A stretch of 7,912 nucleotides of DNA from Candidatus Hydrogenedens sp. (GCA_049968235.1 JBMFRC010000040.1:1-7912), one strand, 5' to 3'; numbered from the stretch's first letter, positions 1-7,912 are shown. Notes: generated by a model from the sequence alone, not told the origin. A program made the numbers and translations.

Positions 1-516
1 CATAAAGGAAGGATTCGTATTACCCGAGTTAGTGAAACCGGAAAAGTAGTTACCTTTAGACATGTAATAACAGGTGACATATTTGGGGACGAAATTTTGT
101 TGGAAAAAAAACAAAGAGAGGAATATGCAGAAGCAATTACAAAATCAGATGTATGGATAATAGCCTTTTCAGAATTCTTAAAAATAAAAGAAGAAAATCA
201 AATATTTGCAAAACTTTATGAAAAAAAACTAATGGAAAGATGTAAAGAATATGAAGAAACATTTGCAGATAGTGTATTTTACCCTGCTATAACACGTGTA
301 GCGAAAAAAATTATAAGAGAAATAAAGAGAGAAATAAATTCTAAAAAAAACTTAGTTATAACTCATCAGGAATTAGCCAACTTATTAGGTATTCGTAGAG
401 AAACTATTACTGTTTGTTTAAAGATTTTAGAGAAAGAAGGATTTATCGAGAAGAAAAAGGGTAGTATAATAATAAAAAATCAAATACTTTTGGAAAATTG
501 GATAGAAAAAAAGTAA
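1..516 (+). CDS. Crp/Fnr-family transcriptional regulator, C-terminal portion. The CDS is 5'-partial: frame 1 is open from base 1 and the first in-window ATG is at 97
   Basis: Frame 1 is open from base 1 (HKGRIRITRVSETGKVVTFRHVITGDIFGDEILL...) with no stop before 516. The tail of a cNMP-type beta-barrel (GDIFGDE..., ...AEAITKSDVWIIAFSEF) is followed by a classic Crp/Fnr winged HTH (ITHQELANLLGIRRETITVCLKILEKEGFIEKKKGSIIIKN). Confidence 0.8.
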   Translation, partial: HKGRIRITRVSETGKVVTFRHVITGDIFGDEILLEKKQREEYAEAITKSDVWIIAFSEFLKIKEENQIFAKLYEKKLMERCKEYEETFADSVFYPAITRVAKKIIREIKREINSKKNLVITHQELANLLGIRRETITVCLKILEKEGFIEKKKGSIIIKNQILLENWIEKK

Positions 517-536
517 CACTATAAAATAAAATCATT

Positions 537-542
537 AAGGAG
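537..542 (+). promoter_or_regulatory. Shine-Dalgarno (AAGGAG) for glgC, 5 nt upstream of the ATG at 548
   Basis: Exact AAGGAG at 537-542 with canonical spacing to the ATG. Confidence 0.6.
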
Positions 543-547
543 TAATT

Positions 548-1765
548 ATGGAAGTATCCATGAAAGATGTCCTTGCTGTTCTACTTGCCGGGGGAGCCGG
601 AGAAAGATTGCACCCTCTAACAAGAAACAGAGCAAAACCTGCAGTTCCTTTTGGAGGTATTTATAGAATTGTAGACTTTACACTTTCTAATTGTATTAAT
701 TCAAACTGCAGAAGAATTCAGGTTCTCGTTCAATATAAATCAAATTCTCTTTCAAGACATATTAGAAATGCATGGAATATTGTTCATCGTGAATTAGGAG
801 AATTTATAGATATTATTCCTCCTCAAATGAGAATAAATGATAGTTGGTATCGCGGAACAGCAGATGCTATTTACCAGAATCTATATTCTATTGACCAGGA
901 AGACCCAAAAATAGTCCTTGTATTAGCAGGTGACCATATTTATAAGATGAACTATCAAAAAATGATTCAATACCATCAGGAAAGAGAAGCAGAATTAACT
1001 ATATCTGCTCTTGAAGTCCCCATTGAAGAAGGTTCTCGTTTTGGAATTATGCAGATAGATAAAAATAATAAAATTATCGGATTCGAAGAAAAACCCAAAG
1101 AACCAAAGTCAATACCCGATAAGCCTGATAAATGCCTTGCCTCTATGGGGATATATGTATTTAATAGGGATTTACTTGCAAATGCCGTAAAGGAAGATGC
1201 AGAAAAAGTTAATTCCGACCATGATTTTGGAAAAAATATTATTCCGAGACTAATTGAAAAAAATAATGTTTATGCATATCCTTTTGAAGATTTAAACAAA
1301 AAAGAAATACCCTACTGGCGTGATGTCGGAACAATTGATAGTTATTGGGAAGCAAATATGGACTTAGTTGAAGTGAGCCCTTTGTTTAATTTATATGACC
1401 GTGAATGGCCTATAAGAACTGTCGTGCCATCGCGTCCTCCCGCAAAATTCGTTTTTGCTGATTTCGGACATCGAATAGGTGTGGCTTTAGATTCTATCGT
1501 TAGTCCCGGATGTATTATCAGTGGAGGTATGGTCAAAAGAAGTATCCTATCAACGGATGTGCGTGTGAATAGTTATGCTTATGTTGAGGAATCCATTCTT
1601 TTTGATGGCTGTAATATAGGACGACATTCAAAGATACGCCGTGCCATTATTGAAAAAAATGTCCAACTGCCAGATAACACAGTCATTGGATATGACCTTG
1701 AGGAAGATTCTAAAAAATATCGTGTTACATCTACAGGTATTGTCGTAGTTGAAAACAAAATATAA
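548..1765 (+). CDS. glgC: Glucose-1-phosphate adenylyltransferase (ADP-glucose pyrophosphorylase)
   Basis: 405-aa ORF. The N-terminus LAGGAGERLHPLTRNRAKPAVPFGGIYRIVDFTLSNCINS...VLVQYKSNSLSRHI matches the hallmark GlgC nucleotide-binding/activator region (E. coli: [41 protein letters not shown]...QYQSHTLVQHI). GTADA, the LAGDHIYKMNY motif and a C-terminal left-handed beta-helix-like region are present. A strong SD lies upstream. Confidence 0.93.
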   Translation: MEVSMKDVLAVLLAGGAGERLHPLTRNRAKPAVPFGGIYRIVDFTLSNCINSNCRRIQVLVQYKSNSLSRHIRNAWNIVHRELGEFIDIIPPQMRINDSWYRGTADAIYQNLYSIDQEDPKIVLVLAGDHIYKMNYQKMIQYHQEREAELTISALEVPIEEGSRFGIMQIDKNNKIIGFEEKPKEPKSIPDKPDKCLASMGIYVFNRDLLANAVKEDAEKVNSDHDFGKNIIPRLIEKNNVYAYPFEDLNKKEIPYWRDVGTIDSYWEANMDLVEVSPLFNLYDREWPIRTVVPSRPPAKFVFADFGHRIGVALDSIVSPGCIISGGMVKRSILSTDVRVNSYAYVEESILFDGCNIGRHSKIRRAIIEKNVQLPDNTVIGYDLEEDSKKYRVTSTGIVVVENKI

Positions 1766-1776
1766 AACGTTTATTT

Positions 1777-2886
1777 ATGAAAATACTTAACTGTAAAACT
1801 AAAGAAATATTATTTATTCTGCTTACAATTTGGATATTTCTATTCCCTATAACCATATATTCCGAGATTTCTAATACCACCGAAATTACAGTAAAACCCG
1901 ATTACAATAGTATAGATGCATTTTTAGAAAAAGAAATAGATAAAAATAAAGAATATAACTCTCCTGAGGAACTACTTAAAAAAGCAAACGAGTTGTTGAA
2001 TTTAGTAGATTATTTTAAAGAACGAAAAGATAGAGATGTAATAAAAAAGATTATGTTGTCTATCGAGGAAATATACAAAGAAGGCTTATCAAAATACCCT
2101 GCAAATATAAGGATATATGATGATTATGGGGCTTTTCTATATGATTATAAGGGGGATTATATAAATTCTGTTCAATTATGGGAACAAGGGTACAAACTGG
2201 ATGAAAAAGATGCAAGCATAAACAATAATTTAGCCCTACACTATTTCCATATTGGTGAATATGATAAAGGATGGGATTATTTACAAAATGCACTAAAATA
2301 TGGTGAGAATGAATCTAATATATTATATAATTCAGCACAGATTTTTATAATTTATAGAAATCAAATTCAAGAAAGAACCGGCTGGGATAAAGAAAAAATA
2401 TATAAAAAAGCAATGGAATATTCTGAAAAAGCAGTAAAAATAAGTCCCAATGACTTTGAATTATTAAAAGATTATGCATTAAATTTTTTTGCCGCAGTTC
2501 AATTCAATTTACCGATAGAAGGAAAAAAATCTGCTATTGCATGGCAAACTGCAAGAAAACATGCCCAAAATGATGATGAAGTTTTTTATACATGGGTAAA
2601 TGAAGGAAGAGCATGGTTAGCCATTAACGAACTAAAAAAAGCAAGAGAGTGCCTTGTTGAGGCTATAAAAATACGACCTGATAGTGTAATTGTAAAAGAT
2701 ATATTGTCCCGTATTGATTCAGGAGAAATTAAGGAAAGTATTGAAGAACAAAAAAAGGCAAAACATAAACCTCCAGAAGAAGAATATCGAAATTCATTAA
2801 TATCTCCTTTTAAGAATTTTTCAGGCAAGAAAAATAAAACACCACTAATACCACAACAAGATAAACCCGAAAAGAAAAAGAAATAA
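1777..2886 (+). CDS. TPR-like repeat protein with N-terminal signal peptide or signal anchor and a Lys-rich C-terminal tail
   Basis: 369-aa ORF. The hydrophobic N-terminus (ILFILLTIWIFLFPITIYSE) is followed by a helical repeat architecture with TPR-like signatures (LALHYFHIGEYDKGWDYLQNALKYG, NSAQIFIIYRN, WVNEGRAWLAINELKKARECLVEAIKIRPD). It lies 11 nt after the glgC stop and no SD is evident. Confidence 0.6.
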   Translation: MKILNCKTKEILFILLTIWIFLFPITIYSEISNTTEITVKPDYNSIDAFLEKEIDKNKEYNSPEELLKKANELLNLVDYFKERKDRDVIKKIMLSIEEIYKEGLSKYPANIRIYDDYGAFLYDYKGDYINSVQLWEQGYKLDEKDASINNNLALHYFHIGEYDKGWDYLQNALKYGENESNILYNSAQIFIIYRNQIQERTGWDKEKIYKKAMEYSEKAVKISPNDFELLKDYALNFFAAVQFNLPIEGKKSAIAWQTARKHAQNDDEVFYTWVNEGRAWLAINELKKARECLVEAIKIRPDSVIVKDILSRIDSGEIKESIEEQKKAKHKPPEEEYRNSLISPFKNFSGKKNKTPLIPQQDKPEKKKK

Positions 2887-2896
2887 TCATTTTACT

Positions 2897-3631
2897 ATGC
2901 CATATTATCAAAAAAGTTACTATTATGAAAATATAAGTTATTTCCGTCCTCCAATTACACCAGGAGTAAGAGCTCTTATAATAATCAACATAGTTATTTT
3001 CGTAATACAGTTATTTATAGGATTACTAATTTCACTCTATAACTCTCTATTTGGTGGAATTTTCTTTGTAAATCAGTCTTTATCATATTTCCATATATCT
3101 TATTGGTTTGGATTTAATGTTCCAATGTTTGTAAAGGGTGCTTTATGGCAACCTTTTACATATTTGTTTATCCATTCCAGTTTATCGCATTTGTTTTTTA
3201 ATATGTTATGGCTTTATATATTTGGTCCTGAAGTGGAAATATACTTTACAAAAAAAAGATTTATTACATTTTATCTTTTTTGCGGAGTTATCTCTGTGCT
3301 GGTAAACTTTATCCCCTTTGTGATACGAGGATTTCAACCACCCATTATCGGTGCAAGTGGTAGTATTATGGCAGTTCTTATTGCATTTGCATATATTAAT
3401 CCTGAACGCGAATTTATTCTTTTCCCATTACCTATTCCTATTAATGCAAGAGGTATTGTTATTTTAGTTATACTGATGAATTTATTCTATGGTTTAGATG
3501 AAACTCAATATTCAGTTTTGACACATTTCGCAGGTATGGGTATTGGTTATCTTTATATTTCTGCGGACTATTTAGGTATTATATATAAAATAAAAAAAAT
3601 ACTTGGTTTAAATAAATTTGATGTAATATAA
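2897..3631 (+). CDS. Rhomboid-family intramembrane serine protease
   Basis: 244-aa polytopic membrane protein. TM1 (RALIIINIVIFVIQLF) is followed by a loop with WQPFTYLFIHSSLSHLFFNMLWLYIFG (rhomboid TM2 H..H...N motif), the catalytic GASGSIMAVL (GxSG) in TM4, and a catalytic His region THFAGMGIGYLY in TM6. It lies 10 nt after the upstream stop. Confidence 0.85.
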   Translation: MPYYQKSYYYENISYFRPPITPGVRALIIINIVIFVIQLFIGLLISLYNSLFGGIFFVNQSLSYFHISYWFGFNVPMFVKGALWQPFTYLFIHSSLSHLFFNMLWLYIFGPEVEIYFTKKRFITFYLFCGVISVLVNFIPFVIRGFQPPIIGASGSIMAVLIAFAYINPEREFILFPLPIPINARGIVILVILMNLFYGLDETQYSVLTHFAGMGIGYLYISADYLGIIYKIKKILGLNKFDVI

Positions 3632-3670
3632 CGGATTATTTCGTTAAATATAGTAAGGGATTTCTACTAT

Positions 3671-4030
3671 ATGTTTCCGAGTTTTCAGGAATTTTTAATG
3701 TTTATTGTGATTATTATCCTGTTAAATTTTACAGGAATACTACCCATTGTTATACGAACATTTAAGGAATTTCGAGGAGATTATGATGGTTATAGAGAAA
3801 GTGAGAGTAAAAATATAAAGGACAATAAAAATCCTCAAAACATAGAGATATCCTATCGTCTTTTAGGTGTTTCTCCCAGCAGTAGTTGGGAAGAAATAGA
3901 AAAAGCATACCGTAGAAAGGCAAAGATACATCATCCAGATCTCGGTGGCGATGAAGATACAATGAAAGCATTAAATGAAGCATATGAAATATTAAAAAGA
4001 ATTTACAAAGGAAATAAAAAAAATTTATGA
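3671..4030 (+). CDS. Small membrane-anchored J-domain (DnaJ-like) protein
   Basis: 119 aa. An N-terminal hydrophobic segment ([21 protein letters not shown]) is followed by a short J-domain: [47 protein letters not shown] with an intact HPD tripeptide. A weak SD (AAGGGA) lies about 10 nt upstream. Confidence 0.75.
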
Positions 4031-6006
4031 AAATAAATAGAAGAAAATTTCTATTCTCCTCTGCAGTTACTTTAGGTTTAATAACGAAATCAAAAAGTTT
4101 ATTTGCCAGTAATAATAAAACACGAGTAGTTCTTCTCGGTTTTGACGGAGCCGAGCCAGATATTGTAAAAAGCATGTTAGAAAAAAAACAATTGCCTAAT
4201 CTTGAAACAGTAATGAAACAGGGATGCTTTTTAAACCTAACTTCTACAATTCCTCCACAATCTCCAACAGCATGGTCAAGTTTTGCTACATGTAAAAATC
4301 CGGGAGAACACGGCATTTATGATTTTCTTCGTCGAGACCCCAAAACATATTTTCCGGGTTTAGCATTGGGGTCTGTTCATTCTCCAGAATTTGATGAACA
4401 GGGCAATCTCAAAAAAGAACCATACTTCGAAACATATCGAAGAGGGATTCCTTTCTGGAAAATTGCTGATGAACAGGGAATCCGTTGTAAGATTCTAAAT
4501 ATGCCATATTCATACCCACCTGATACATTAAAAAATGGATTAATGTTAAGTGGTCTGGGTGTTCCTGATATTAGAGGAACAGAAAGTTTATTTTTTGTGT
4601 TTTCCGATAGATTTACAGAGGAAGAATTAAAACAAAGTATTTCCGGAGGGATGCGTATTAAATTAAACTTTAACAATTCATTTGCAGAGGTAAAATTACC
4701 TGCTCTCCGTAATCCCATTAATCCTAAAAACGGATTTATAGAAGCAAATATAAGTTTCAAAGTAGATAAAACAACAAAGAAAGTAACTATAAATTTAGCA
4801 GATCGTAAAAGTATCCAGATTGAGCAAGGACATTGGTCCGATTGGATAGAATGGGAATTCCCCGTGACAGAAAAATATTCTGTAAAGGCAATCAGTAAAT
4901 TTTATGTAAACAAAATAGGTGAAGAAGTTAATATATATATGACTTGTTTGCAATTTCATCCTCGTTATCCCTATATACCTTTTACTCATCCAGTTAAATA
5001 TTCAGAAGAACTGGCAGAAAGATATGGACTGTATAAAACAATCGGATGGAATTATGATACACATGCTCTGCGTCAAGATGTTCTAACAGAGGATGTCTTC
5101 CTTGATGATGTTCGGAAAACAATGGCATGGCATGAAACGCTAATGTTGGATGAATTAAATAAAGAAGACGATTGGAAATTATTAATGACTATGTGGATGG
5201 CTACTGACAGAGTAGCCCATTTGTTCTGGCGTTTTCGTGACCCTCAACATCCGGAATATAATGCGGAAAAAGCAAAGGTTTACGGAGAAGCCATAGAGGA
5301 AACCTATCGGATAATGGACAAAATTATTGGTAATGCCATGAAATCTATTCGGGAGGATGATTGGTTAATAATAATGTCCGACCATGGGTTTAATACATAC
5401 CGAAAAGGGTTTAATCTGGGAACATGGCTTATACGGGAAGGATACCTTGTTGTAGAGGGACAAACAAATCCGGAAACTGCTTACAATGACCAGGCATTTC
5501 TTTTAGGTTATGATTGGAATAAAACAAAAGCATACGCTTTAGGATTAGGTTCCATATATCTTAATATTGAAGGTCGTGAAAAAAATGGAATTGTTAACAA
5601 AGAAGATGCAAGAGAGTTACGAGAGGAAATAAAAAATAAATTATTGAGTGTAAAAGACCCACAAACAAGTTTACCTGTAGTTAGTAATGTATATAGTTGT
5701 GAAGATTTTCATGGAGATGAAGTAAAAAATGCCCCTGACTTAATTTTGGGTTATCATAAAGGCTACCAATCAACAAAAGCAACCGCCAAAGGTTCTGCTC
5801 CCCAATCAATATTTGAAGATAATAAGGATAAATGGAGTGGTGACCATGTGGCAACAGATTATAAATTAATTCCCGGCATGATGATAACAAATAAAAATAT
5901 AAATACATCCTCACCCCACATTCAAGATATTGGCGTTTCCATTTTATCATACCTGAATTTAAATGTCCCCAAGGATTTGCAAGGGAAGAATATTCTTGAA
6001 GGTTGA
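4027..6006 (+). CDS. Tat-signal alkaline-phosphatase-superfamily enzyme (type I phosphodiesterase / nucleotide pyrophosphatase-like, PF01663-like)
   Basis: 659 aa. Its start overlaps the upstream stop (ATGA, 4027-4030). The N-terminus [28 protein letters not shown] has a twin-arginine RRxFL motif, an h-region and an AxA-like cleavage site. [10 protein letters not shown] (metal-binding Asp), a ...[28 protein letters not shown] nucleophile region (candidate Thr at 4246-4248), LIIMSDHGF and WSGDHV are typical of NPP/AlkP-like metallo-phosphoesterases. Confidence 0.8.
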
Positions 6007-6015
6007 AAATAATAA

Positions 6016-6990
6016 TTAACCGAACCATTTACGAGGGCGCTCTTTATTACGTTTATACATTTGTATAGCAGTAGAAGCATCTTCTTTTACTTGAAAATCA
6101 AACATTCCCACACAAATAAAATCAGCCCCATGTTTAAATGCAAAATCAAAACCTTTTTTAGGAGGTATTGCCCCAGCAGCAAGGACTTTAAATGCTATCC
6201 ACGGAACTTTAACATTTTTCATTATTTCCCGGGTTTTATCCGGGTCCATATCCCACTTATTGTCATAATATTCATTCGATTTAGCTGACCAATAATCAAG
6301 GGAATGGAATGTCTTCATATAAAAATCCGGATAAATTCCCTCTTTTTCACATGCGATAACAACATCGATAGAGTGACCGCCAATACCTCCTATAACACCT
6401 TTATCCCGTATATGGTCAACTATTTTCCCTAAAAGTTTTGTATCTCCTTTTTTTACAAAATCATCTCCTATCTGTCCCTGAATATATACACCAGTAGCGC
6501 CGTTATCGATGGCTATATCTGCATCCTCAAAAAGATTGATTTTCTTAGGCTTTATTTGTGCAATCCATTGTATTTTTCCATGATATTCTCTCCAATAGCG
6601 ATTGATAATTTTTAATGTTTTATCATCCAATCTCAATATCGCAGTATTTATACCTGCCTGCTCGTATAAATTAAGTGTTTGCAATATCTTTTGTTCTGTA
6701 AAATAGTTTCTCATTAATTCGCTAACATAAATCAAATCCCTACTATGGGATATTCCACTTATTAAATTTCCCCCGGCTATTAGCCTGCTCACTTCAAGAT
6801 GTTTGATTTTCCCCATCGGCATATTTTTAGGCAAATCCTCAACGTTATTTAAATAGTCTTCTTCCTCTAATAATTCTCCTTGTTCCTCAATCAGAGGTAG
6901 GGAATCATTTTGATTTAGAATTGAATTTGCTAAAAAAGGAGAAAGAGAAGCGCCAGCAATAAATTCTCTTCTTGATATATGGTCCTTCAT
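6016..6990 (-). CDS. Tat-signal (twin-arginine) exported protein of unknown function; predicted alpha/beta, possibly a TIM-barrel-like fold
   Basis: 324 aa. MKDHISRREFIAGASLSPFLANS is a good Tat signal. An acidic linker (EEQGELLEEEDYLNNVED) precedes an alternating beta/alpha pattern with Gly-rich loops (GGIGGHS, AAGAIPP). SD AGGAG (reverse complement of 6997-7001) lies 6 nt from the ATG. No family assignment is possible by eye. Confidence 0.6.
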   Translation of the reverse strand: MKDHISRREFIAGASLSPFLANSILNQNDSLPLIEEQGELLEEEDYLNNVEDLPKNMPMGKIKHLEVSRLIAGGNLISGISHSRDLIYVSELMRNYFTEQKILQTLNLYEQAGINTAILRLDDKTLKIINRYWREYHGKIQWIAQIKPKKINLFEDADIAIDNGATGVYIQGQIGDDFVKKGDTKLLGKIVDHIRDKGVIGGIGGHSIDVVIACEKEGIYPDFYMKTFHSLDYWSAKSNEYYDNKWDMDPDKTREIMKNVKVPWIAFKVLAAGAIPPKKGFDFAFKHGADFICVGMFDFQVKEDASTAIQMYKRNKERPRKWFG

Positions 6991-7093
6991 TAGAACACTC
7001 CTATATGTTAATTGATTTAAAAACTCTATGATATAATTAATATAAATTAATATGAAATATAATATTGTATATTAAAATTAACGAATAAAGGTT
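6991..7093. promoter_or_regulatory. AT-rich divergent promoter/operator region between the minus-strand Tat protein gene and the plus-strand CNB-domain gene
   Basis: 103-bp intergenic region between divergent starts. Tandem 10-bp-phased direct repeat AATTAATAT at 7035-7043 and 7045-7053. Inverted repeat GTTAATT (7007-7013) and AATTAAC (7076-7082). TATAAT-like hexamer at 7058-7063, suitably placed for the ORF starting at 7094. Confidence 0.3.
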
Positions 7094-7603
7094 ATGACGG
7101 ATATACAGAAATATGAACGATATGCAGAAAAAATATCACTCTTTAATGGTTTAATGGCAGAAGAAGTAGAAGACTTGATAAAAAGAGGTAAAATTATTAT
7201 TGCAAGAAAAGGGGAGACCATATTCCATGAAGGAATGTTAGGTAGCAACTTATTTATTGTATTGAGCGGTAAAGTTGGTATTTATATAAAAAATCAACTT
7301 ATAACAAAATGCCATGTTGGTGATACTTTTGGTGAAATGGCAGTGTTAAATAAAAAACCAAGAACAGCAACTGCGACCGCATTAGAAGAAAGTCGTTTAT
7401 TATGTCTGGATGAAAAACAGATAAACGATATATTAGAAAAACATGTCGCAGTAAGGTTATTGCTCAATGCCATACATTTCTTGAGTGAACGATTAGAGAG
7501 AGATAATTATTTAATTGCAGAAATGGTTAAGACATTAAAAAAACATAATATAGATATTCCGGAAATAGAACCTAAAAAGGGTAAGGAAGATAAAAAACAA
7601 TAG
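7094..7603 (+). CDS. Stand-alone cyclic-nucleotide-binding (CNB) domain protein; no DNA-binding or other effector domain
   Basis: 169 aa. FGEMAVLNKKPRTATATALEESRLLCLD matches the cNMP-binding signature F-G-E-x-A-[LIV]-x(5)-R-[ST]-A-T-A-x-A. The beta-barrel is followed by the hinge/C-helix (VAVRLLLNAIHFLSERLERDNYLIAEMV) and a short charged tail with no HTH. Confidence 0.8.
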   Translation: MTDIQKYERYAEKISLFNGLMAEEVEDLIKRGKIIIARKGETIFHEGMLGSNLFIVLSGKVGIYIKNQLITKCHVGDTFGEMAVLNKKPRTATATALEESRLLCLDEKQINDILEKHVAVRLLLNAIHFLSERLERDNYLIAEMVKTLKKHNIDIPEIEPKKGKEDKKQ

Positions 7604-7614
7604 AACTATTGACT

Positions 7615-7912
7615 ATGGTAAACAAACCAAACATAGCAAATTCAGGTATATCATTTAGAGACCGTTTTATCAGTGCCCTTTTAATAGGGGGAGTTATAGG
7701 GATTTTATGTGGTAGTGCAATAAAAATGTTTTATGCTCCTATTAAAACAGTTCCTCAAGAAATGAAAATGGTTACAGAAAAGAAAAAAAATATATACAAA
7801 GATAAAAAAATTAACGAAAATGTAAATTTATTAGAAAATCATCCTGTGATGGCTTATATTAAGGCATACCAGGAAGAGAAATGGGAAAATGTCATTGAAC
7901 AAACACAATGGA
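7615..7912 (+). CDS. Hypothetical small membrane protein, 3'-partial (runs off the window end)
   Basis: First ATG at 7615, 12 nt after the upstream stop. Frame 1 is open to base 7911. The predicted TM helix ALLIGGVIGILCGSAI is followed by a Lys-rich soluble segment. No clear SD, so the start is uncertain. Confidence 0.4.
   Translation, partial: MVNKPNIANSGISFRDRFISALLIGGVIGILCGSAIKMFYAPIKTVPQEMKMVTEKKKNIYKDKKINENVNLLENHPVMAYIKAYQEEKWENVIEQTQW

Follow-up and report, generated by a model that had tools for sequence, protein, structure and literature searches.

Which genes of a densely packed string belong together, and what could an intramembrane protease do with a J protein encoded next to it? 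Both questions are raised by a 7,912-nt stretch from a metagenome-assembled genome (MAG) of Candidatus Hydrogenedens (JBMFRC010000040.1, positions 1-7912; hereafter the window, meaning the whole stretch that was analysed). It is AT-rich, with a GC content of about 32%, and in it five genes follow one another on the plus strand: those for the glucose-1-phosphate adenylyltransferase GlgC, a periplasmic tetratricopeptide repeat (TPR) protein, a rhomboid protease, a small membrane-anchored J protein and a phosphodiesterase. To our knowledge, what bacterial rhomboids do in the cell, and with which partners, is still mostly unclear, and only AarA-TatA, YqgP-FtsH-MgtE and the clearance of orphan proteins by GlpG/Rhom7 have been worked out well.

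The first question can be answered plainly from the comparison of gene neighbourhoods. The rhomboid-J pair is the invariant core of a conserved unit, (TPR)-(SPase I)-rhomboid-J, in which SPase I stands for signal peptidase I (S26), and the five genes of the window represent a layout around that unit which is peculiar to one clade. The answer to the second question is tentative: the account that we favour is a Hydrogenedentota-wide operon for the processing or the quality control of envelope proteins, in which the J protein would recruit DnaK to the rhomboid. The evidence for it is purely genomic and is confined to one uncultured phylum, Hydrogenedentota. The members of the unit that are present in the window are the following:

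1777-2886, plus strand: periplasmic TPR protein, 369 aa (TPR_2, 39.7 bits against a cutoff of 27; TPR_1, 29.7 against 27.8; also TPR_14)
2897-3631, plus strand: rhomboid intramembrane serine protease, 244 aa (PF01694, 90.9 bits against 22.6, E 1.2e-25)
3671-4030, plus strand: small membrane-anchored J protein, 119 aa (DnaJ PF00226, 48.7 bits against 27.8, E 7.9e-13)

The rhomboid-J pair and its companions

Loci for comparison were gathered by look-ups of TPR homologues, by a scan of a genome collection with the rhomboid alignment, by look-ups of diverse J proteins and by a scan of metagenomes with the J alignment, and they were annotated with hidden Markov models (HMMs) built from family members, using six-frame HMM searches. 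The first three sets, seeded mainly on the rhomboid or the TPR protein, comprise 15 distinct Hydrogenedentota lineages, and the J-seeded metagenome set comprises 19 loci with full-length family members, 18 of which have readable upstream sequence. The sets overlap slightly, since L092 and L002 are one contig and L093 hardly differs from L007. Rhomboid and J genes are adjacent and co-directional in 14 of the 15 lineages, with gaps of 1-69 nt between them, and the rhomboid gene lies directly upstream of the J gene in every one of the 18 evaluable J-seeded metagenome loci. The genomes that carry the pair span 32-65% GC, and the genes that flank it vary by lineage. Related rhomboids of other phyla do not share this arrangement, as a J gene downstream was found in none of 72 such loci (from Acidobacteriota, Chlorobi-type, Marinimicrobia-type, Verrucomicrobiota and others).

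Is this conservation more than what the compactness of the string would lead one to expect? The five genes are spaced, as read from the sequence, by 11 (glgC/TPR), 10 (TPR/rhomboid), 39 (rhomboid/J) and -4 nt (J/phosphodiesterase), the last being an ATGA overlap. An earlier reading of the same DNA, here called the original prediction, had already given these five plus-strand genes with their gaps and domain calls, and all of them are borne out by the sequence and by profile scores. It had also suggested co-transcription, with internal promoters or terminators as the signs that would speak against it. A scan of the window revealed no terminator-like hairpin in any gap of the five-gene string, and promoter-like matches in the window are about as frequent as chance predicts (38, with 41 expected), none of them in the intergenic gaps; moreover, gaps of 10-11 nt leave no room for a terminator plus a promoter. 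An Rfam scan of the whole window returned no match. Lying on one strand, with small gaps, no internal terminator and a conserved order, the TPR, rhomboid and J genes are predicted to form a co-transcribed operon, and in the window glgC is probably co-transcribed with the TPR gene and those after it. Small gaps between same-strand bacterial genes are nonetheless ordinary, and the feature that stands above chance is not the spacing, it is the adjacency of rhomboid and J (and TPR) that has been kept across deeply diverged genomes. Synteny beyond this genome, whose lack the original prediction had named as a reason to abandon its proposal, is indeed retained for the TPR, rhomboid and J genes, whereas it is kept only in part for glgC, and the phosphodiesterase is limited to one clade. 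On the other hand, the rhomboid-J core itself, the membership of signal peptidase I and the conservation of the J helix had been missed.

The TPR protein is a frequent, not an obligatory, member of the module. Its gene lies upstream of the rhomboid gene, directly or with S26 in between, in 9 of the 15 lineages of the first set and in 11 of the 13 evaluable J-seeded loci, and every TPR-family gene with readable context adjoins either the rhomboid or S26 plus the rhomboid. The protein begins with a signal peptide or anchor (aa 1-28, 1777-1860), continues as a TPR solenoid (about aa 60-320) and ends in a disordered tail rich in Lys (aa 331-369), which is found in the Hydrogenedens clade only. All family members have hydrophobic N-termini (signal peptides), and the distant ones have AxA-like signal-peptidase sites. 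An AlphaFold2 (AF2) model is all-helical, with a pLDDT of 83 overall and above 90 at residues 60-320, and a Foldseek search with it against the PDB returned generic TPR superhelices only, among them consensus TPR and OGT with E from 1e-9 to 1e-6. The scores for the characterised families PilW, Ycf3, MamA, BepA and PrsT are all far under cutoff (the best is PilW, with 37.3 against 154 bits); with no curated cutoff reached, nothing points to an unrelated characterised family, which the original prediction had named as a reason to give up its proposal. The family is small, with 28 cluster representatives, and each one named by a source is labelled Hydrogenedentota or Hydrogenedens.

Signal peptidase I often joins the cluster as a fourth member, in roughly half of the lineages. 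The S26 gene, which keeps the SM-x-P and KR-I-x-G motifs, lies between the TPR and the rhomboid genes in 5 of the 15 lineages and in 8 of 15 evaluable J-seeded loci, and it is found neither in the window nor in the clade of the latter. Other genes occupy the surroundings of the pair elsewhere. The upstream open reading frames (ORFs) of L087 and L090 match no Pfam family. In L013, a 1446-aa protein (7050-11390) with a PMT_2 (ArnT/PMT-type) membrane domain and more than 13 TPRs is encoded 5 nt after the rhomboid-J pair; it was considered as a TPR-family orthologue and rejected, being a glycosyltransferase of the PMT_2 family whose TPRs are generic. Three contigs labelled 'uncultured Nitrospirales' (L007, L009 and L012) carry a Hydrogenedentota-type TPR/S26-rhomboid-J cluster, in L007 together with the phosphodiesterase, which suggests mis-binning or mislabelled taxonomy.

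The protease and the membrane J protein

The rhomboid is a bare core of the type with six transmembrane segments (TMs), and the Rhomboid domain, whose Pfam match spans residues 81-221, is the only one it has. The catalytic motif GASG (G152-A-S154-G) is encoded at 3350-3361, with the codon of Ser154 at 3356-3358 and that of His210 at 3524-3526, and the residues H93, H98 and N102 of TM2 (H-x4-H-x3-N motif) at 3173-3202. These five residues (S154, H210, H93, H98 and N102) are invariant in the alignments of 15 and of 118 homologues. Because the catalytic residues are invariant and the rhomboid profile aligns with GlpG of H. influenzae (2nr9) with Ser and His matched, the protein should be an active protease. 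It is neither a GlpG nor a rhombosortase equivalog, as all the equivalog scores fall below cutoff (28.7 against 335 bits for GlpG, 26.2 against 250 for TIGR04239 and 29.7 against 84 for rhombosortase).

The closest parallel for a rhomboid acting with TPRs is YqgP (GluP) from B. subtilis, which ends in three TPRs that form an extracellular domain and serves as an adaptor of FtsH in the quality control of the membrane protein MgtE (PMC7231995). The original prediction had described this precedent accurately and had seen in the TPR-rhomboid pair a split version of it, a view of which the architectural analogy stands and the evolutionary claim is not supported, since a TPR Pfam domain is found on none of the 120 rhomboid homologues listed and the protein is a bare core. 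Both systems combine an active rhomboid (in our case a predicted one) with an extracytoplasmic TPR domain, and YqgP couples intramembrane cleavage to a cytoplasmic ATP-driven machine in membrane-protein quality control, as the Hydrogenedentota system would do. However, compared by domain layout, the TPRs of YqgP are fused after an extra, seventh TM and are accompanied by a cytosolic metal-sensing N-domain, both of which are missing from the 244-aa core, whereas the TPR solenoid of about 260 residues is here a separate secreted protein; besides, the machine would be Hsp70, reached through a separate J protein, and not FtsH. The relationship between YqgP and the Hydrogenedentota rhomboid is known at the level of the Rhomboid and TPR superfamilies only.

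The J protein has a 4-residue N-tail, a helix (aa 5-36, 3683-3778), a linker (aa 37-51) that is disordered and variable between members, and the J domain (aa 55-117, 3833-4021). Its landmarks are Glu7 (3689-3691), the motif TG-x-[WL]-P (3731-3745), Arg35 and the HPD motif (3932-3940). E7, R35 and H88-P89-D90 are invariant in 121 of 121 J proteins (alignments of 11 and of 121 sequences were used), and at least 90% conservation is reached in the 121 sequences by I15, L18, G22, P25, R32, E33, L34 and G36; judged by these alignments, the membrane helix is conserved far beyond what a passive anchor would need. The AF2 model has a helix at 5-34, disorder at 37-51 and a J domain with a pLDDT of about 90, and J domains in the PDB match the protein at E down to 5e-9. 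The topology is predicted to be N-out/C-in, because the hydrophobic stretch is followed by basic residues and DnaK can be met only by a cytoplasmic J domain. The family counts over 120 representatives with lengths of about 105-125 aa, and all the named ones are from Hydrogenedentes; when its N-terminal module was searched for elsewhere with a HMMER profile, among 1.84 billion representatives, nothing was retrieved except the family itself and its fragments.

Part of this conserved module is cut off in the deposited sequence. The NCBI annotation, read from the matching contig JBMFPN010000156 (Candidatus Hydrogenedens MAG GCA_049969095.1), gives the J gene 110 aa and a start at window position 3698 (L001 3608-3635 equals window 3671-3698), that is, 27 nt downstream of 3671. 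A start at 3698 would strip off the N-terminal MF-PS-QE that is kept throughout the family, and with it the invariant Glu7, and the start at 3671 has an AAGGGA ribosome-binding site at 3654-3659, about 11 nt upstream. On account of this ribosome-binding site and of the conserved N-terminus, the deposited start is probably 27 nt too far downstream, the true one being 3671 (119 aa).

Membrane-anchored J proteins are known from other bacteria. DjlA of E. coli has an N-terminal TM anchor and a cytoplasmic C-terminal J domain with HPD, and it is presumed to activate DnaK locally at the inner membrane. The anchor and the HPD-containing J domain are common to both proteins, whereas the Hydrogenedentota protein is much shorter, its TM helix differs and is conserved to a far higher degree, and its gene goes with that of a rhomboid. 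Its score for DjlA (PRK09430) is 32.3 bits against a cutoff of 162, and it is the J domain alone that aligns.

What, then, could the N-terminal helix of the J protein be for? Its consensus, MF..G.QELLI...L..TG.WP...R.LRELRG, reads like the N-termini of TatB and TatA from E. coli, with the polar Glu at a TatB-E8-like position. The resemblance bears on two alternatives to DnaK recruitment to the rhomboid. According to the first, the J protein is a substrate of the rhomboid, as TatA is processed by AarA in Providencia stuartii (PMC3712462), and cleavage in or near its helix activates, inactivates or releases the J domain. According to the second, it is a protein of the TatA/TatB kind that has diverged and links DnaK with the twin-arginine translocase (Tat), with the phosphodiesterase and a convergent ORF with a Tat signal as clients.

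The resemblance was measured with hhalign against a target of six TatA/B/E sequences, of which TatA and TatB of E. coli were checked against NC_000913. With a J profile of 11 sequences the probability was 81% and the score 26.3, over all of 60 block-preserving shuffles (mean 12.3, maximum 20.2); with a profile of 121 sequences they fell to 22.7% and 19.9, a score matched by 1 of 100 block shuffles. Pfam TatA_B_E (PF02416) gave no match at E<=10 for 11 J members and none in the precomputed domains of 120 listed representatives, and the AF2 model shows a single straight helix without the hinge of TatA. The homology of the J N-terminus to TatA/TatB is therefore unproven and is not used here as evidence. 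For a coupling to Tat speak the TatB-like N-terminus, the position of the Glu, the suggestive first alignment and the presence of two Tat-signal proteins just downstream in the window; against it, besides the drop with the larger profile, the missing Pfam match and the hingeless model, there are a HMMER profile that finds its own family only and the fact that those Tat substrates occur in one clade. Taken together, this makes such a coupling highly unlikely.

The idea that the rhomboid cleaves the J protein has somewhat more in its favour, as N-out/C-in single-pass proteins are typical bacterial rhomboid substrates and the J helix contains the helix-perturbing residues E7, G22 and P25, to which the AarA precedent and the same first alignment may be added. 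Nevertheless, in 118 of 121 J proteins only 4-8 residues precede the invariant Glu, so that there is no TatA-like N-terminal extension to be removed, and the recognition motif P4/P1/P2' (large hydrophobic/small/hydrophobic), which was defined on TatA (PMC2941825), is conserved nowhere in the J N-terminus, no position having it in more than 36 of 121 sequences. The lack of an extension and of a conserved motif makes AarA-type processing unlikely. Furthermore, a cut near the outer leaflet would leave the cytoplasmic J domain tethered instead of freeing it, and in view of all this the J protein is improbable as a rhomboid substrate. What remains of the likeness is that a bacterial rhomboid goes together with a small N-out single-pass protein whose N-terminus superficially resembles that of TatA/TatB and which, unlike TatA, has a J domain in place of the amphipathic tail.

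A possible role in the envelope and its main rival

The envelope operon that is favoured here starts from what is observed: the gene order and spacing, the phylum-wide adjacency of rhomboid and J, the intact catalytic residues and HPD motif, the signal peptides of the TPR family and the conservation of the J helix. Its members would act as follows. The active site of the rhomboid would open to the periplasmic leaflet, and the protease would recognise and cleave single-pass or orphan membrane proteins. The exported TPR protein could be a periplasmic adaptor that binds substrates or partners, mirroring the extracellular TPRs fused to YqgP. The J protein would be placed beside the rhomboid, N-out/C-in, through its conserved Glu-containing helix, and the HPD of its J domain would activate DnaK (Hsp70) on the cytoplasmic side. 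The chaperone might then hold, unfold or extract the cytoplasmic parts or the cleavage products of the substrates, in a manner comparable to the recruitment of FtsH by YqgP. The physical association, the recruitment of DnaK to the rhomboid, the nature of the substrates and the role in quality control are inferred.

A more demanding version, possible although doubtful, is that the rhomboid and the J protein bind each other within the membrane via the Glu-containing helix of the latter and so build an Hsp70-coupled intramembrane protease/dislocase, to which the TPR receptor and signal peptidase I would also belong as subunits. In such a complex the protease would cut or hold a TM segment while DnaK, activated on the spot, pulls the substrate from the membrane, which would make it a prokaryotic, catalytically active counterpart of Derlin-type endoplasmic reticulum-associated degradation (ERAD) or of a Pam18-type import motor. 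Mitochondrial Pam18/Tim14, Sec63 of the endoplasmic reticulum and the translocase of the inner membrane (TIM) of trypanosomes also have a small single-pass J protein beside a polytopic membrane machine, an arrangement by which Hsp70 pulls polypeptides. The trypanosome TIM complex contains rhomboid-like subunits. However, these systems are eukaryotic and those rhomboid-like subunits are catalytically dead, whereas the Hydrogenedentota rhomboid retains its catalytic residues, so that the likeness is an analogy only; the J protein of the trypanosome complex is Pam27 (PMC7064343). A bacterial parallel for the proposed substrates is offered by GlpG and Rhom7 of Shigella/E. coli, rhomboids that clear orphan membrane proteins (PMC7232013). 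The removal of unassembled membrane proteins is what the two cases would share, but GlpG and Rhom7 are not known to have a dedicated J-protein or TPR partner encoded alongside, and the Hydrogenedentota rhomboid is, as said, no GlpG equivalog.

The main rival is simpler: a conserved housekeeping operon, whose products have independent functions in envelope biogenesis and are co-regulated or inherited as a block, with no physical cooperation. Several points weigh in this direction and against the quality-control operon. Signal peptidase I is a housekeeping enzyme, and its occurrence with intact motifs in the same string as glgC may mean precisely a plain operon of that kind. All the linkage evidence is gene order within one phylum, where adjacency can partly reflect shared ancestry and not selection. 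One lineage, L008, retains S26-rhomboid (5293-6795), and none of the frames of the 6 kb that follow contains a J-family ORF; the J gene may have been lost, relocated or affected by the assembly. Among 118 rhomboid sequences there is no Hydrogenedentota-specific basic or charged residue that could pair, by covariation, with Glu7 of the J protein; group-specific positions do exist (e.g., P111, N195, V207 and T209), and none of them is basic. In L011, L012, L087, L090, L103 and L104 no TPR gene is near the pair. Finally, a physical interaction of the rhomboid with the J protein (and the TPR protein) is inferred only from gene linkage and helix conservation.

Other observations are harder to reconcile with mere housekeeping. 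The rhomboid-J junction persists in 32 of 33 evaluable contexts in which the surroundings have been rearranged, the J helix shows the conservation of an interaction surface, down to the buried invariant Glu, and the J family appears to be confined to where this rhomboid clade exists. Considering both sides, a housekeeping operon without cooperation is rather unlikely, and even more so are the readings in which the J protein is a substrate or a Tat component, or in which the whole five-gene string is one system (see below).

Regarding the operon for envelope-protein processing or quality control, rhomboids, membrane J proteins and TPR adaptors were already known, and what the data suggest as new is that, throughout a phylum, a rhomboid is tied to a J protein of its own. 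No literature on a rhomboid with a J protein in bacteria, or on rhomboids in Hydrogenedentes, was found in a search that left most subscription journals outside. This phylum-wide tie suggests that intramembrane proteolysis may draw on Hsp70 as a second kind of force generator in the cytoplasm. Moreover, the system is compact, with three or four genes (TPR, SPase I, rhomboid and J), and could be reconstituted heterologously, which provides a testable partner for a bacterial rhomboid.

Neighbouring genes in the window

The remaining features of the window are these:

1-516, plus strand: Crp-family regulator, truncated by the window start (matches to cNMP-binding and HTH domains)
548-1765, plus strand: glgC, glucose-1-phosphate adenylyltransferase (NCBIfam NF001947, 602.7 bits against a cutoff of 470)
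4027-6006, plus strand: alkaline-phosphatase-superfamily phosphodiesterase, 659 aa (Phosphodiest PF01663, 126.1 bits against 23, E 3.2e-36)
6016-6990, minus strand: convergent 324-aa ORF with a Tat-like signal (no Pfam/NCBIfam match)
7094-7603: cNMP-binding-only protein, 169 aa, without a DNA-binding domain (domain match)

Should any of them be counted as part of the system? The original prediction had treated glgC-TPR-rhomboid-J-phosphodiesterase as one co-transcribed string, in which the phosphoesterase could be a dedicated exported cargo, and the tight spacing, the ATGA overlap of J and phosphodiesterase in the window and the identical order in L002, L004, L092, L094 and L096 are consistent with a five-gene functional system. 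The phosphodiesterase does carry what is predicted to be a Tat signal peptide for export: the twin-arginine motif NRRKFLF at aa 4-10 (4036-4056) is followed by the hydrophobic SSAVTLGLI, and the RR motif is kept in the orthologues (NRRQFLL in L004 and SRRKFLF in L007). A sequence search of the PDB with this protein yielded no relative. Nonetheless, it follows the J gene in the low-GC clade of the window only (the window, L002, L004, L007, L092, L094 and L096), whose loci all share a J identity of at least 58%, and each of the more distant rhomboid-J loci has a different, unrelated downstream gene. The phosphodiesterase is thus a clade-specific neighbour and not a module member, which does away with the notion of a dedicated cargo.

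The case of glgC is similar. It lies upstream of the TPR gene in the window, L002, L004, L014/L088, L089, L092, L094 and L096, and together with a Crp-type regulator it is found upstream in many lineages, not in all of them, being absent in L005/L006 and L009. In L109 it is located at 5274-6494, about 1 kb downstream of J and not upstream of TPR, a loose linkage that has outlived rearrangement. It is a neighbour with no obvious functional link to the module. With glgC absent or relocated in several lineages and the phosphodiesterase limited to one clade, a five-gene system with the phosphoesterase as Tat-exported cargo is largely refuted and hardly tenable; for annotation, neither gene is to be read as a part of the system.

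Some minor features of the surroundings deserve mention. A 184-aa antisense ORF (3762-4316, minus strand) that overlies the J and phosphodiesterase genes was rejected as a shadow ORF of an AT-rich genome, because its frame is not open in the orthologous loci (just 70-106 aa in L002, L004 and L007). The 324-aa minus-strand ORF at 6016-6990, with the signal SRREFI (TSRRKFI in the L004 orthologue), is also convergent to the phosphodiesterase gene in L002 and L004 and represents a second putative Tat substrate, with no family match. The cluster is flanked by two cyclic-nucleotide-type regulators (1-516 and 7094-7603), both of which are kept in L002 and L004; L009, L014/L088, L089, L092 and L094 likewise have a Crp-type gene ahead of glgC or TPR. 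Lastly, in the high-GC L088 (3171-3809) and L089 (2646-3293), and not in the window, a PF04199 'putative cyclase' is encoded between the Crp-type regulator and glgC.

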